Source of the DNA: Escherichia coli | Lineage (GTDB): Bacteria > Pseudomonadota > Gammaproteobacteria > Enterobacterales > Enterobacteriaceae | Direction: 5' to 3' (one strand) | Assembly: GCF_017348835.2 (NCBI RefSeq) | Contig: NZ_CP071375.1 | DNA: 64,000 nt | The notes under the pieces: generated by a model | The model's database searches: none | What the model saw: only the letters and a program-made list of their open reading frames with translations | Told to the model about the DNA's origin: nothing | Shown: positions 22,001-41,347 of the stretch, in pieces | Position numbering within the stretch: the stretch's first letter is position 1 | Layout of the letters: the number at the start of each line of letters is the position of its first letter | Made by a program: the position numbers and the translations under genes

Positions 22001-22219
22001 ATGGCATTCAGTAATCCCTTCGATGATCCGCAGGGAGCGTTTTACATATTGCGCAATGCGCAGGGGCAATTCAGTCTGTGGCCGCAACAATGCGTCTTAC
22101 CGGCAGGCTGGGACATTGTGTGTCAGCCGCAGTCACAGGCGTCCTGCCAGCAGTGGCTGGAAGCCCACTGGCGTACTCTGACACCGACGAATTTTACCCA
22201 GTTGCAGGAGGCACAATGA
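22001..22219 (+). CDS. ybdZ: YbdZ, MbtH-like protein (partner of the EntF adenylation domain)
   Basis: 72 aa from ATG 22001 (MAFSNPFDDPQGAFYILRN...); AGGAG 7 nt upstream; stop overlaps the entF ATG (ATGA). Confidence 0.88.
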   Translation: MAFSNPFDDPQGAFYILRNAQGQFSLWPQQCVLPAGWDIVCQPQSQASCQQWLEAHWRTLTPTNFTQLQEAQ

Positions 22220-33942: not shown

Positions 33943-35553
33943 ATGAGCATTCCATTCACCCGCTGGCCGGAAGAGTTTGCCCGTCGCTATCGGGAAAAAG
34001 GCTACTGGCAGGATTTGCCGCTGACCGACATTCTGACTCGCCACGCTGCGAGTGACAGCATCGCGGTTATCGACGGCGAGCGACAGTTGAGTTACCGGGA
34101 GCTGAATCAGGCGGCGGATAACCTCGCGTGTAGTTTACGCCGTCAGGGCATTAAACCTGGTGAAACCGCGCTGGTACAACTGGGTAACGTCGCTGAACTT
34201 TACATTACCTTTTTCGCACTGCTGAAACTGGGCGTTGCGCCGGTGCTGGCGCTGTTCAGCCATCAGCGTAGTGAACTGAACGCCTATGCCAGCCAGATTG
34301 AACCGGTGTTACTGATTGCCGATCGCCAACATGCGCTGTTTAGCGGGGATGATTTCCTCAATACTTTCGTCACAGAACATTCCTCCATTCGCGTGGTGCA
34401 ACTGCTCAACGACAGCGGTGAGCATAACTTGCAGGATGCGATTAACCATCCGGCTGAGGATTTTACTGCCACGCCGTCACCTGCTGATGAAGTGGCCTAT
34501 TTCCAGCTTTCCGGCGGCACCACCGGCACACCGAAACTGATCCCGCGCACTCATAACGACTACTACTACAGCGTGCGTCGTAGCGTCGAGATTTGTCAGT
34601 TCACACAACAGACACGCTACCTGTGCGCGATCCCGGCGGCTCATAACTACGCCATGAGTTCGCCGGGATCGCTGGGGGTATTTCTTGCCGGAGGAACGGT
34701 TGTTCTGGCGGCCGATCCCAGCGCCACGCTTTGCTTCCCATTGATTGAAAAACATCAGGTGAACGTTACCGCGCTGGTGCCACCGGCAGTCAGCCTGTGG
34801 TTGCAGGCGCTGGCTGAAGGCGAAAGCCGGGCGCAGCTTGCCTCGCTAAAACTGTTACAGGTCGGTGGCGCACGTCTTTCTGCCACGCTTGCGGCGCGTA
34901 TTCCCGCTGAGATTGGCTGCCAGTTGCAGCAGGTGTTTGGCATGGCGGAAGGGCTGGTGAACTACACCCGACTTGATGATAGCGCGGAGAAAATTATCCA
35001 TACCCAGGGTTACCCAATGTGTCCGGACGATGAAGTGTGGGTTGCCGATGCCGAAGGAAATCCACTGCCGCAAGGGGAAGTTGGACGCCTGATGACGCGC
35101 GGGCCGTACACCTTCCGCGGTTATTACAAAAGTCCGCAGCACAATGCCAGTGCCTTTGATGCCAACGGTTTTTACTGTTCCGGCGATCTGATCTCTATTG
35201 ATCCAGAGGGTTACATCACCGTGCAGGGGCGCGAGAAAGATCAGATCAACCGTGGCGGCGAGAAGATCGCTGCCGAAGAGATCGAAAACCTGCTGCTGCG
35301 CCATCCGGCGGTGATCTATGCCGCACTGGTGAGCATGGAAGATGAGCTGATGGGCGAAAAAAGCTGTGCTTATCTGGTGGTAAAAGAGCCGTTGCGCGCG
35401 GTGCAGGTGCGTCGTTTCCTGCGTGAACAGGGTATTGCCGAATTTAAATTACCGGATCGCGTGGAGTGTGTGGATTCACTTCCGCTGACGGCGGTCGGGA
35501 AAGTCGATAAAAAACAATTACGTCAGTGGCTGGCGTCACGCGCATCAGCCTGA
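33943..35553 (+). CDS. entE: EntE, 2,3-dihydroxybenzoate-AMP ligase
   Basis: 536-aa ORF; adenylate-forming motifs SGGTTGTPK and YCSGD. Confidence 0.95.
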
Positions 35554-36424: not shown

Positions 36425-37586
<1,162 letters not shown>

Positions 37587-37628
37587 ACCCGACAGAATTA
37601 TATGAGATTGCAGGAAAACTCGGTTAAC

Positions 37629-37648
37629 GGAGTGATCGAGTTAACATT
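37629..37648. promoter_or_regulatory. CRP-like site upstream of cstA
   Basis: aGTGA-tcgagt-TaACA matches TGTGA-N6-TCACA at 4 of 5 positions in each half-site; cstA is a carbon-starvation gene. Confidence 0.4.
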
Positions 37649-37766
37649 GTTAAGTTAAATATTGGTTTCAACTCCGATTTACATGGTTGCTGTGTTGTTA
37701 AATTGCGCAAAGATGTTATAGAAACAAAATGTAACATCTCTATGGACACGCACACGGATAACAACT

Positions 37767-39872
37767 ATGAACAAATCAGGGAAATACCTCGTCTGGACAG
37801 TGCTCTCTGTAATGGGAGCATTTGCTCTGGGATACATTGCTTTAAATCGTGGGGAACAGATCAACGCGCTGTGGATTGTGGTGGCGTCGGTCTGTATCTA
37901 TCTGATCGCTTACCGTTTTTATGGCCTGTATATCGCCAAAAATGTGCTGGCGGTTGACCCGACGCGTATGACGCCAGCGGTGCGCCATAACGACGGGCTG
38001 GACTATGTGCCGACGGACAAGAAAGTGCTGTTCGGTCACCATTTTGCGGCCATTGCCGGAGCAGGTCCGTTGGTGGGGCCGGTGCTGGCAGCGCAAATGG
38101 GCTACCTGCCGGGGATGATCTGGCTGCTCGCCGGGGTGGTTCTCGCCGGTGCGGTGCAGGATTTCATGGTGCTGTTTGTTTCTACGCGCCGTGACGGTCG
38201 TTCGCTGGGTGAGCTGGTCAAAGAAGAGATGGGGCCAACCGCCGGGGTGATCGCGCTGGTGGCCTGCTTTATGATCATGGTCATTATCCTTGCAGTACTG
38301 GCGATGATCGTGGTGAAAGCCCTGACTCATAGCCCGTGGGGAACGTATACCGTTGCGTTCACCATTCCGCTGGCGCTGTTTATGGGGATCTACCTGCGCT
38401 ATCTGCGTCCGGGGCGTATTGGTGAAGTGTCGGTCATCGGTCTGGTATTCCTGATTTTCGCCATTATCTCTGGCGGCTGGGTGGCAGAAAGTCCGACCTG
38501 GGCACCGTACTTTGACTTTACCGGCGTGCAGCTGACCTGGATGCTGGTGGGTTACGGTTTTGTGGCGGCGGTGCTGCCGGTGTGGTTGCTGCTGGCTCCG
38601 CGTGACTACCTCTCTACCTTCCTGAAAATCGGGACGATCGTCGGTCTGGCGGTAGGCATTTTGATTATGCGCCCGACGCTGACCATGCCTGCACTAACTA
38701 AATTTGTTGATGGTACTGGCCCGGTATGGACCGGTAACCTGTTCCCGTTCCTGTTTATCACCATCGCCTGTGGCGCGGTGTCAGGCTTCCATGCGCTGAT
38801 CTCTTCCGGCACCACGCCGAAGATGCTGGCGAACGAAGGGCAGGCGTGCTTTATCGGCTACGGTGGAATGTTAATGGAATCCTTCGTGGCGATTATGGCG
38901 CTGGTTTCCGCCTGTATCATCGATCCGGGCGTTTACTTTGCCATGAACAGCCCAATGGCGGTGCTGGCTCCGGCAGGGACGGCGGATGTGGTCGCTTCTG
39001 CCGCGCAGGTGGTGAGTAGCTGGGGCTTTGCGATTACCCCGGATACGCTAAACCAGATTGCCAGCGAAGTGGGTGAACAGTCGATCATTTCCCGTGCGGG
39101 CGGTGCGCCGACGCTGGCGGTGGGGATGGCCTACATTCTGCACGGCGCGCTGGGCGGCATGATGGATGTGGCGTTCTGGTATCACTTCGCCATTTTGTTT
39201 GAAGCATTGTTTATTCTGACGGCGGTGGATGCAGGTACGCGTGCTGCGCGCTTTATGTTGCAGGATCTGCTGGGCGTGGTTTCTCCGGGCCTGAAACGGA
39301 CCGATTCACTGCCTGCTAACCTGCTGGCAACGGCGCTGTGCGTGCTAGCGTGGGGCTACTTCCTGCATCAGGGGGGGGTCGACCCGCTGGGTGGTATTAA
39401 CACTCTGTGGCCGCTGTTTGGTATTGCCAACCAGATGCTGGCAGGGATGGCGCTGATGCTCTGTGCCGTGGTGCTGTTCAAAATGAAACGTCAACGTTAC
39501 GCCTGGGTGGCGCTGGTACCAACGGCCTGGCTGCTGATTTGTACCCTGACCGCTGGCTGGCAGAAAGCGTTTAGCCCGGATGCGAAAGTCGGCTTCCTGG
39601 CCATTGCTAACAAGTTCCAGGCAATGATCGACAGCGGCAATATTCCGTCGCAGTATACTGAGTCACAGCTGGCGCAACTGGTGTTCAACAACCGTCTGGA
39701 TGCCGGGTTAACCATCTTCTTTATGGTGGTCGTGGTGGTTCTGGCACTGTTCTCGATTAAGACGGCACTTGCGGCATTGAAAGAGCCGAAGCCAACGGCG
39801 AAAGAAACGCCGTATGAGCCGATGCCGGAAAATGTTGAGGAGATCGTAGCGCAGGCGAAAGGCGCGCACTAA
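37767..39872 (+). CDS. cstA: CstA, carbon starvation protein / peptide-pyruvate transporter
   Basis: 701-aa polytopic membrane ORF; recognised by recall. Confidence 0.93.
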   Translation: MNKSGKYLVWTVLSVMGAFALGYIALNRGEQINALWIVVASVCIYLIAYRFYGLYIAKNVLAVDPTRMTPAVRHNDGLDYVPTDKKVLFGHHFAAIAGAGPLVGPVLAAQMGYLPGMIWLLAGVVLAGAVQDFMVLFVSTRRDGRSLGELVKEEMGPTAGVIALVACFMIMVIILAVLAMIVVKALTHSPWGTYTVAFTIPLALFMGIYLRYLRPGRIGEVSVIGLVFLIFAIISGGWVAESPTWAPYFDFTGVQLTWMLVGYGFVAAVLPVWLLLAPRDYLSTFLKIGTIVGLAVGILIMRPTLTMPALTKFVDGTGPVWTGNLFPFLFITIACGAVSGFHALISSGTTPKMLANEGQACFIGYGGMLMESFVAIMALVSACIIDPGVYFAMNSPMAVLAPAGTADVVASAAQVVSSWGFAITPDTLNQIASEVGEQSIISRAGGAPTLAVGMAYILHGALGGMMDVAFWYHFAILFEALFILTAVDAGTRAARFMLQDLLGVVSPGLKRTDSLPANLLATALCVLAWGYFLHQGGVDPLGGINTLWPLFGIANQMLAGMALMLCAVVLFKMKRQRYAWVALVPTAWLLICTLTAGWQKAFSPDAKVGFLAIANKFQAMIDSGNIPSQYTESQLAQLVFNNRLDAGLTIFFMVVVVVLALFSIKTALAALKEPKPTAKETPYEPMPENVEEIVAQAKGAH

Positions 39873-39879
39873 AGTCAGA

Positions 39880-40020
39880 GTGAGGGGGATGTTGGCGAAT
39901 GTTGGCATAGTGCCGAGGGTTCCCCCTCACTCTAACCATCTCCCCGATGGGGCGAGGGGACTGACCGAGCGCGTTGATAGCATTTGTAGGCCGGATAAAG
40001 CGTTCACGCCGCATCCGGCA
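39880..40020. repeat. Palindromic intergenic repeats (REP-like) between cstA and ybdD
   Basis: AGAGTGAGGGGGA ... TCCCCCTCACTCT inverted repeat at about 39880-39935, then REP unit GTAGGCCGGATAAAGCGTTCACGCCGCATCCGGCA. Confidence 0.75.
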
Positions 40021-40052
40021 CTCTTTCAGCAACATGGTTAGCGGAGGCCAAG

Positions 40053-40250
40053 ATGTTTGATTCACTGGCAAAAGCCGGAAAATATTTAGGTCAGGCGGCG
40101 AAGCTGATGATTGGTATGCCTGATTACGACAACTATGTCGAACATATGCGGGTTAACCATCCCGATCAAACGCCGATGACCTACGAAGAGTTTTTCCGTG
40201 AGCGGCAGGACGCGCGCTACGGTGGAAAAGGCGGCGCGCGCTGCTGCTAA
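40053..40250 (+). CDS. ybdD: YbdD, small DUF466-family protein co-located with cstA
   Basis: 65-aa ORF; recognised by recall. Confidence 0.85.
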
Positions 40251-41347
40251 ATTTGCACGTCAGGCTTTAACGATTCCACTTTTTCGAACGCTGCACGCAA
40301 CGTATCTGGTGTCAGCGTGACTGGCAGGTAATGAATGGACTCCACCGGGCGCAAGGTGTGGGCAATCACTTTGTCGATCTCCGCCTGATTATTGATATCC
40401 ACTTCCAGCTCCGCCAGCGTAGTCGGCAGATGAAAACGCTGATACGCTCCAGTTAATTGCGCCAGAACATCATCCTGACCCAGCAAGGCGCTTTGCACCA
40501 GAATTCCGTAGGCGACTTTGGTGCCGTGAAGAAACTTCTCGGTTTGCGGCAGCACGGTCAGACCGTTATGCACGGCGTGAGCCGCCGCCACACGCGTAAA
40601 ACGATCGCCCAGACCACCGACCATTCCACCTCCGGCGATAATGGCATCCACCACATCGCAAAATGATTGCGTTAACTGCTGATTTTGCTGATCGCTCAGC
40701 GCCTGTTCGCTACTGTTTAACAAGACGTCGCGAATGGCCTGCGCATTATTGATCCCCAGCCGCACGGTTAGCGGCAACGTTTCTGGTTGCGGAGCCAGCA
40801 CCACCGCTTCATACCATTTCGCCAGCGTGTCACCGATCCCCGCCAGCAGATATTGTTGCGGCGCATTGAGGATAATCTCTGGTTCCACCAGCACCATAAA
40901 ATTGGCGTCGTCGAAAATCTCATAATGCAGCGCCTGTCCGGCATCGTTATACCAGACGGAGAGCGGTGTCCAGGCGGCGCAGGTGGCGGCGATCGTCGGA
41001 GCGGCAACAAATGGCAGACCGAGACGGCGGGCGAGGGCTTTCGCGGTGTCGAGTAGTGCGCCGCCGCCGACGCCAATCACCACGCTGCGATCGTCACCGG
41101 ACTCAGCCGCCAGTTGTTGTACATCGCTTTCGCTGCAATGACCGCGAAACAAAATATGCTTTGCCCCCGGCAGTTCAAACGCTGGCGGAAGTTTGGTTTG
41201 CGCCGCAGCAATGGCGCGTTCGCCGTAGATCCACACCGCGCGAGAAAGTTGTTCATCAGTGAAAAAATCGTGCAGATGATTGAAACTTCCTGGATGTGAA
41301 AAGTAGTTAGCCGGGCCGACGACCACGCGGATAGGATTGTGAGGCAT
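40247..41347 (-). CDS. ybdH: YbdH, iron-containing (group III) alcohol/hydroxycarboxylate dehydrogenase
   Basis: 366-aa ORF (exact start not verified); glycerol-dehydrogenase-like motifs. Confidence 0.88.

Follow-up and report, generated by a model that had tools for sequence, protein, structure and literature searches.

The 64,000-nt stretch of Escherichia coli DNA analysed here (GCF_017348835.2, contig NZ_CP071375.1; hereafter the window) covers the chromosomal region entH-cstA-ybdD-hcxA. The genes cstA and ybdD follow one another on the plus strand, and the spacer between them holds an inverted repeat directly behind cstA, a BoxC/HPG1 repeat and a single REP unit (Table 1). According to Hwang et al. 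2018, CstA and its small partner YbdD form the constitutive pyruvate importer of E. coli; that paper mentions neither an operon nor a promoter of cstA-ybdD, and the SMRT-Cappable-seq supplements name neither gene. A consensus scan of the spacer for promoters and terminators predicted no intrinsic terminator and no strong promoter. The GGAGG ahead of ybdD is kept in every allele aligned except LI60C3 (AGAGG). A 53-codon GTG open reading frame at 39880-40041 was rejected as coding: it starts within the left arm of the inverted repeat, and the G-run just 3' of its start varies by 1-2 nt among strains, which shifts the reading frame.

Downstream, hcxA converges on ybdD, and its read-through transcripts are likely to run antisense across ybdD and the spacer; hcxA is also the likely source of a minus-strand signal in K-12. 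Just inside the 3' end of hcxA, at 40268-40272, the window lacks one nucleotide that K-12 and UTI89 have (TTTAAC in place of TTTAAAC). The last hcxA codons are therefore shifted and the reading frame ends 4 nt inside ybdD, whereas in K-12 9 nt separate the hcxA stop from the ybdD stop.

Table 1 Features of the cstA-ybdD locus in window coordinates, with the paralogous K-12 spacer in the last row.
Feature	Position	Strand	Details
cstA (pyruvate/proton symporter)	37767-39872	+	701-aa ORF; RefSeq annotation of matching genomes; stop TAA 39870-39872
cstA-ybdD spacer	39873-40052		180 nt
Proximal repeat, left arm AGAGTGAGGGGGA	39877-39889	+	starts 4 nt past the cstA stop; locus-specific, nearly invariant across Escherichia
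Window equivalent of the K-12 Cappable-seq start	39882	+	G inside the left arm; good to about 1-2 nt
10-nt tandem duplication in the loop	about 39888-39897 and 39898-39907		absent from some strains (allele alignment)
Proximal repeat, loop	39890-39920	+	31 nt; nested 6-bp helix, 39892-39897 with 39911-39916 (predicted fold)
Proximal repeat, right arm TCCCCCTCACTCT	39921-39933	+	doubles as the BoxC 5' end
BoxC/HPG1 repeat	39920-39972	+	match to six other K-12 copies; own hairpin 39936-39959
Window equivalent of the K-12 RNA 3' end at 632098	39969	+	transferred from K-12 by alignment
REP unit GTAGGCCGGATAAAGCGTTCACGCCGCATCCGGCAC	39986-40021	- (classical consensus orientation)	single unit; stem arms 39990-40003 and 40006-40019
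ybdD Shine-Dalgarno sequence GGAGG	40044-40048	+	read from the sequence
ybdD (YbdD/YjiX family, small CstA partner)	40053-40250	+	65 aa; ORF list; RefSeq annotation of matching genomes
hcxA (ybdH), convergent	40247-41347	-	ORF list; RefSeq annotation of matching genomes
btsT(yjiY)-yjiX spacer, K-12	NC_000913.3 4589080-4589128	-	49 nt

An inverted repeat joined to a BoxC element

The arms AGAGTGAGGGGGA and TCCCCCTCACTCT of the proximal repeat are exactly complementary over 13 nt, on which sequence reading and a repeat finder agreed, and the stem lengthens to 16 nt with one mismatch (39874-39889 with 39921-39936). No second copy of the 13-mer arm was found within 2 mismatches in the 64-kb window. 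The number of perfect inverted repeats (stem of at least 13 bp, loop of 3-60 nt) expected from 60 windows simulated with a first-order Markov model was 0.083 per 64 kb; the window itself has two such loci, namely the proximal repeat and a repeat at 26111-26147. The inverted repeat between cstA and ybdD is a real, non-random feature. The centroid structure predicted for the spacer RNA consists of three separate stem-loops. As plus-strand RNA the proximal repeat folds with -34.3 kcal/mol in the window versus -23.4 kcal/mol in K-12, which carries the weakest allele.

The repeat at 26111-26147, the second of these two loci, has a 14-bp AT-rich stem (ATAAACCCATAATT / AATTATGGGTTTAT), a 9-nt loop and a T-rich tail, and is probably the terminator of the adjoining 1339-codon open reading frame (22078-26097) just upstream. 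At 34627-34672 there is a further inverted repeat, with a perfect 12-bp stem around a 22-nt loop. Within the proximal repeat, the hexamer GGAUGU at 39887-39892 spans the junction of left arm and loop and is base-paired in the predicted stem; it arises from the 10-nt tandem duplication, and alleles without the duplication have none. We take GGAUGU to be the core of the CsrA-binding consensus, and cstA is among the established targets of CsrA, through its leader.

A BoxC element contributes its 5' end as the right arm of the repeat. Left arm and loop are specific to the locus, and the left arm is missing beside the six other K-12 BoxC copies. These six copies give the consensus ttcCCCTCACCCTAACCCTCTCCCCnnnGGGGCGAGGGGACyGAyCGnGC. 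The family is defined by a match over about 50-56 nt that takes in the internal hairpin CCCTCTCCCC / GGGGCGAGGGG, and the window element belongs to it by its 21-nt core (within 4 substitutions) and by flanks that align with the six K-12 copies. It departs from the consensus at two substitutions, CACTCT for CACCCT and CCATCT for CCCTCT. The former perfects the 13-bp stem, and the latter weakens the BoxC hairpin (-11.6 kcal/mol versus -17.2 in K-12, plus-strand RNA). Together they abolish the four-G-tract motif: searched for four tracts of at least 3 G with loops of 1-7 nt, the minus strand GGGGAGATGGTTAGAGTGAGGGGG had only two runs of at least 3 G, whereas the K-12 allele satisfies the rule. 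We take the HPG1 family to be the 56-bp BoxC of the older literature (Bergler 1992, Bachellier 1996, Blattner 1997). The K-12 cstA-ybdD copy has already been catalogued, as HPG1 member 19 (Kaplan et al. 2016, PMC5100583). The K-12 BoxC copy in yjdP-phnP (NC_000913.3 4314159-4314479, minus strand), is preceded by TGAGAGGGAATGTGCGCGCTGGCCCCCTCACCCT, which resembles the hairpin TGAGGGGGAATGTGCTGAGCGCTCCCCTTACTCT found behind cstA in B2 strains, and pairing of an upstream arm with the BoxC 5' end may recur at other loci.

REP elements are imperfect palindromes of about 35 nt with the consensus GCC(G/T)GATGNCG(G/A)CG...CTTATC(C/A)GGCCTAC. The unit in the spacer reads GTGCCGGATGCGGCGTGAACGCTTTATCCGGCCTAC as the reverse complement of 39986-40021 and conforms to it. 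It is extragenic, and elsewhere in genomes only the REP part of the query finds matches. The sole Rfam match in 37400-40600 was a sub-threshold one to the REP-derived naRNA4 (39989-40030, 32.2 bits against a gathering score of 59.5, E = 0.0036), and that scan returned no known regulatory RNA. The spacer holds this one REP only, so it does not form a BIME, which has at least two REPs in alternating orientation with conserved linkers. Its folding energy as plus-strand RNA is -16.1 kcal/mol in the window versus -21.1 in K-12.

The original prediction had placed a perfect stem of about 13 bp, with a spacer of about 30 nt and a REP unit after it, between cstA and ybdD. The stem proved to be exactly 13 bp around 31 nt, the REP at 39986-40021 was confirmed by its arms, the consensus and the naRNA4 match, and the position between the two genes agrees with the ORF coordinates and the RefSeq annotation. 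The feature itself was right, and its predicted start at 39880 falls 3 nt inside the left arm, which begins at 39877. The anatomy was correct as regards the repeat and the REP and incomplete in that the BoxC element at 39920-39972 was overlooked, as were the nested 6-bp helix, the 10-nt duplication in the loop and the rarity of the perfect-stem allele.

Conservation within Escherichia and in other genera

Across 15 E. coli alleles the spacer is a mosaic of 112-182 nt, in which the 10-nt loop duplication, the BoxC core, the REP and a distal hairpin vary between strains. The proximal repeat with BoxC was recovered over at least 80% of a 97-nt query in 4,096 of 5,426 complete E. coli genomes, and the BoxC tail with REP and ybdD start in 3,688 of them; the exact window allele occurs in 2. 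BoxC and REP are thus missing at the locus in 25-32% of E. coli genomes (about 32% for the REP), so both are dispensable and cannot be essential. B2 strains such as UTI89 have a different distal hairpin (GCCCTC..GAGGGC then ATTTGTA) and lack the BoxC core while retaining its CCGAGCG tail; other Escherichia species have neither core nor tail. E. albertii, E. whittamii, Escherichia sp. MOD1-EC7003 and SCPM-O-B-8794 (a divergent genome labelled E. coli) carry the hairpin and the REP without BoxC.

The proximal stem retains 11-13 of its 13 pairs, read as plus-strand RNA, in all 17 Escherichia alleles and species compared. Pairs were counted by fixed offsets, as the MAFFT alignment mis-registered the right arm where it had one C fewer. 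The left arm is near-invariant in these 17 sequences, and changes in the right arm are mostly C to U, yielding G.U pairs. Two positions have changed on both sides, position 12 (G-C to A-T, two sequences) and position 3 (A-T to T.G, E. albertii); together with several G-C to G.U changes these make up the covariation, in 17 closely related sequences in which most pairs are invariant. Most BoxC-bearing E. coli alleles have an A.C mismatch at stem position 3, and the window allele is the only one of the 17 with 13 Watson-Crick pairs; the perfect 13/13 stem is a rare allele. The distance from the cstA stop to the stem is 4 nt in all Escherichia alleles. In alleles without BoxC the sense RNA is more stable than the antisense RNA (-26.9 versus -14.2, -28.9 versus -19.2 and -22.9 versus -14.6 kcal/mol), whereas in BoxC-carrying alleles the antisense hairpin equals the sense hairpin in stability. 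The sense-strand bias of the BoxC-less alleles points to selection on the cstA-sense transcript; the evidence from covariation is at most modest. As judged from the sequences compared, the proximal hairpin predates BoxC and is conserved throughout the genus Escherichia.

We then examined the same spacer in other genera. A scan for YbdD relatives gave 80 loci, one per species, with cstA directly upstream in 77; one locus with a divergent CstA (45% identity) was left out, leaving 76 species of Enterobacteriaceae. In three of these the spacer is 14-20 nt long and has no hairpin, which argues for an ancestral cstA-ybdD operon. The other 73 spacers (47-146 nt) all fold at -18.6 kcal/mol or better, and 63 of them have z < -2 against dinucleotide shuffles (median z -3.2). 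Of the two strands, the sense one is favoured by >2 kcal/mol in 42 species, as against 6 species that favour the antisense one, counted over species that are non-independent samples; base composition could be a partial cause of this asymmetry.

The hairpins of the different genera are mutually unrelated in sequence and non-homologous. Simple GCCCTCTCC..GGAGAGGGC stems are found in Citrobacter and Salmonella, clear T5 terminators in Atlantibacter and C. freundii, REP-like units in Enterobacter, and large double BoxC-like palindromes in E. asburiae, E. hormaechei, Leclercia and Lelliottia. The distal hairpin of E. coli B2 strains aligns positionally with the Citrobacter/Salmonella hairpin, and the REP of other Escherichia lies in the same place. 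Seven spacers (Enterobacter, Lelliottia, Leclercia, Phytobacter, Pluralibacter) contain large near-perfect palindromes in which two BoxC-like halves stand in inverted orientation, CCCCTCACCCnnGCCCTCTCCC...GGGAGAGGGTnAGGGTGAGGGG; with folding energies of -62 to -90 kcal/mol, these palindromes are reminiscent of miniature inverted-repeat elements. Two public records stood apart from the enterobacterial loci. Streptomyces sp. DH24 (a 465-bp contig) carries an enterobacterial ybdD (98% identity), and a 'Bacillota bacterium' metagenome-assembled genome carries one (89% identity) together with an Enterobacter-type REP spacer; both look like contamination or mis-binning in public assemblies.

RNA ends mapped in K-12

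The published Term-seq data place a plus-strand RNA 3' end inside the K-12 spacer, at NC_000913.3 632098 (Adams et al. 2021, PMC7815308; supplementary files 1 and 3). This end was recorded at LB OD 2.0 only, one of three conditions, with 1,686 reads, and lies 84 nt before the ybdD ATG (PMC7815308). It corresponds to the G of CTGACCGAG in K-12, about 9-10 nt past the BoxC hairpin. At three other K-12 BoxC copies RNA 3' ends lie 2-3 nt past the hairpins, so that BoxC hairpins recur at RNA ends at four loci. The K-12 Term-seq lists (PMC7815308) have no plus-strand 3' end at either the REP or the proximal repeat. For the minus strand, Adams et al. 2021 (PMC7815308) report a Rho-termination region at 631994 with a Rho score of 4.49, where the read count dropped from 78 to 10 in the absence of bicyclomycin and from 120 to 69 in its presence. 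This position is 10 nt beyond the base of the proximal repeat on the antisense strand, at a lower resolution than the plus-strand end. In K-12, the source of all RNA ends considered here and the bearer of the weakest repeat allele, an RNA end close behind a stable stem-loop without a U-tract is seen for the BoxC hairpin on the plus strand and, at lower resolution, for the repeat on the minus strand, and was not seen for the repeat on the plus strand.

For the carry-over of coordinates from U00096.2 to the newer K-12 version we assumed a shift of +777 (range 776-778), which places a weak transcription start of the older map at 39882. This plus-strand start, at U00096.2 631232, comes from Cappable-seq (Ettwiller et al. 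2016, PMC4782308). A candidate -10 hexamer, TAAAGT (39870-39875), spans the cstA stop, with the start 7 nt downstream of it, and ybdD may also be transcribed independently from this start in the left arm.

The paralogous pair btsT(yjiY)-yjiX has the same gene order and the same protein families, and its spacer also holds a GC-rich hairpin, AGCCCCGC-UUCG-GCGGGGCU then UUUGUUCUU. There, a 'primary' yjiY 3' end with 59,788 reads was mapped at 4589097 (Adams et al. 2021, PMC7815308), which indicates that the transporter message mainly ends before the gene of the small partner. Unlike the structures between cstA and ybdD, the btsT hairpin is short (8 bp), has a UUCG loop and a U-tract and looks like an intrinsic terminator, in a 49-nt spacer without repeat elements.

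Proposed role of the spacer structures and its alternatives

On balance we lean towards the reading that the U-less stem-loops of the spacer form and protect the 3' end of the cstA mRNA and uncouple the dosage of ybdD. Transcription from the cstA promoter would enter the spacer, and part of the transcripts would end or be cut there or further downstream. We infer that 3'-to-5' exonucleases would then trim them back to barriers formed by the proximal hairpin, the BoxC hairpin and the REP; a stable cstA-only mRNA would be the outcome, and ybdD dosage would be set separately, by read-through and possibly by the weak start in the left arm. On the opposite strand, the structures would in addition bound transcripts that read through from the convergent hcxA. 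For Rho-terminated E. coli mRNAs in general, stem-loops lacking a U-tract set the 3' ends and shield them (Dar and Sorek 2018, PMC6061677), and the preferred reading agrees with this.

The spacer can be set beside several known systems. Like the protective stem-loops of Rho-terminated transcripts (PMC6061677), its structures are stable and U-less, with K-12 ends a few nt past BoxC on the plus strand and past the repeat on the minus strand; unlike them, they lie between two functionally linked genes and not at the end of a transcription unit. REP elements are known as mRNA stabilisers, as in malE-malF (Newbury et al. 1987, as cited in PMC6061677). The locus resembles that type in having one canonical REP in an operon-like spacer, a stable hairpin without a U-tract that would be expected to block 3' exonucleases. 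It differs in that the REP is single and not part of a BIME pair, is absent at the locus from about 32% of E. coli genomes and has no listed K-12 3' end beside it. With the BoxC/HPG1 family (PMC5100583) it shares about 53 nt of match to the consensus, an extragenic position and a catalogued K-12 orthologue, and it departs from the family in its weakened hairpin, the lost four-G-tract and a 5' end paired with a locus-specific upstream arm.

That the repeat and the REP could give the cstA and ybdD parts of the message different stabilities was the functional core of the original prediction. The idea gains indirect support from the K-12 3' end at 632098 within the spacer, from the hairpin in 73 of 76 species and from the 3' end in btsT-yjiX. 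In its details it needs revision: the mapped end comes after BoxC, not after the REP or the 13-bp repeat, many strains do without BoxC and REP, and the weak start and the antisense ends complicate the picture. An independent ybdD promoter downstream of the repeat had been named as evidence that would speak against the idea; a weak K-12 start is listed, but it maps upstream of the structures, in the left arm.

A rather unlikely alternative is that BoxC and REP are neutral or selfish DNA in a tolerant spacer, the perfect stem being due to a chance C-to-T change in the BoxC end, with no selected role in expression. It would account for modules that come and go by strain in spacers of 112-182 nt, for an exact allele confined to 2 of 5,426 genomes, and for the presence of multi-copy families here and, in this spacer of other genera, of elements that resemble REP or a double BoxC. 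It sits poorly with a proximal hairpin that all Escherichia alleles carry, BoxC or no BoxC, whose substitutions are compatible with RNA pairing and whose folding favours the sense strand, and it would leave aside the hairpins of 73 of 76 species and the RNA 3' ends beside BoxC hairpins at four loci. Alternatively, the structures might serve mainly the opposite strand, stopping read-through transcripts of the convergent hcxA or marking their end, and so shield cstA from antisense RNA. In K-12 the 9 nt between the two stops leave hcxA no room for a terminator of its own, the minus-strand Rho-termination region at 631994 is found 10 nt beyond the repeat, and in BoxC alleles the two strands form hairpins of equal stability. 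The alleles of ancestral type and most other genera, however, favour the cstA sense strand (42 versus 6 species), and the 3' end in the btsT-yjiX paralogue is on the sense strand, so we regard this role as improbable.

Slightly less probable still, the hairpin 4 nt past the stop might stall terminating ribosomes and lower CstA output. Such stalling was reportedly described by Liang, Rudd and Deutscher in 2015 where a REP element lies no more than about 15 nt from a stop codon. The constant distance in all Escherichia alleles and a stem of -20 to -34 kcal/mol would suit this effect, but the distance between hairpin and stop varies in other genera, which leaves the wider conservation unexplained. 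That cstA ends at an intrinsic (Rho-independent) terminator is very improbable: GC-rich stem-loops do lie directly 3' of the gene, and in Atlantibacter and C. freundii a T5 tract follows the corresponding hairpin, but the scan of 39873-40052 found no intrinsic terminator and the tails (AACCAT, CTGACC, ACTCTT) have no T-run. We give the least credence to a switch between DNA G-quadruplex and hairpin, as proposed for the HPG1/HPG2 motif family; the K-12 copy is a listed HPG1 member, whereas the window allele GGGGAGATGGTTAGAGTGAGGGGG has lost the four-tract motif. The intrinsic terminator, the G-quadruplex switch and the small open reading frame are each poorly supported or fail a defining feature that was tested.

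Beyond the preferred reading of protected cstA mRNA ends, we tentatively raise the possibility, doubtful as it is at present, that the spacer between a CstA-family transporter and its PF04328 partner is a conserved slot that needs a sense-strand stem-loop, by which the transporter message would be ended or protected and the dosage of the partner set, and the sequence of which has repeatedly been swapped for available palindromes. The slot would be filled by a simple hairpin resembling a terminator in Citrobacter, Salmonella and E. coli B2, by a REP at the same position in other Escherichia and, in most E. coli, by a BoxC fused onto an existing hairpin arm. Palindromic repeats may also simply accumulate at spacers that already bear hairpins. 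What is new here is modest and consists of the genus-wide proximal hairpin, its fusion to the end of a BoxC element and the cross-genus hairpin slot that is common to the btsT-yjiX paralogue.

In other respects the element is a commonplace instance of repeat families known from E. coli, and the mechanism proposed is a familiar one. If the spacer hairpins do define the end of the cstA mRNA, natural alleles should differ in their CstA:YbdD ratio, and the alleles, with spacers of 112-182 nt and stems from perfect to mismatched, would form a natural series for the tuning of expression by repeat elements within an operon. If the idea of a conserved slot is true, interspersed repeats would have been recruited to refill a functional RNA element.
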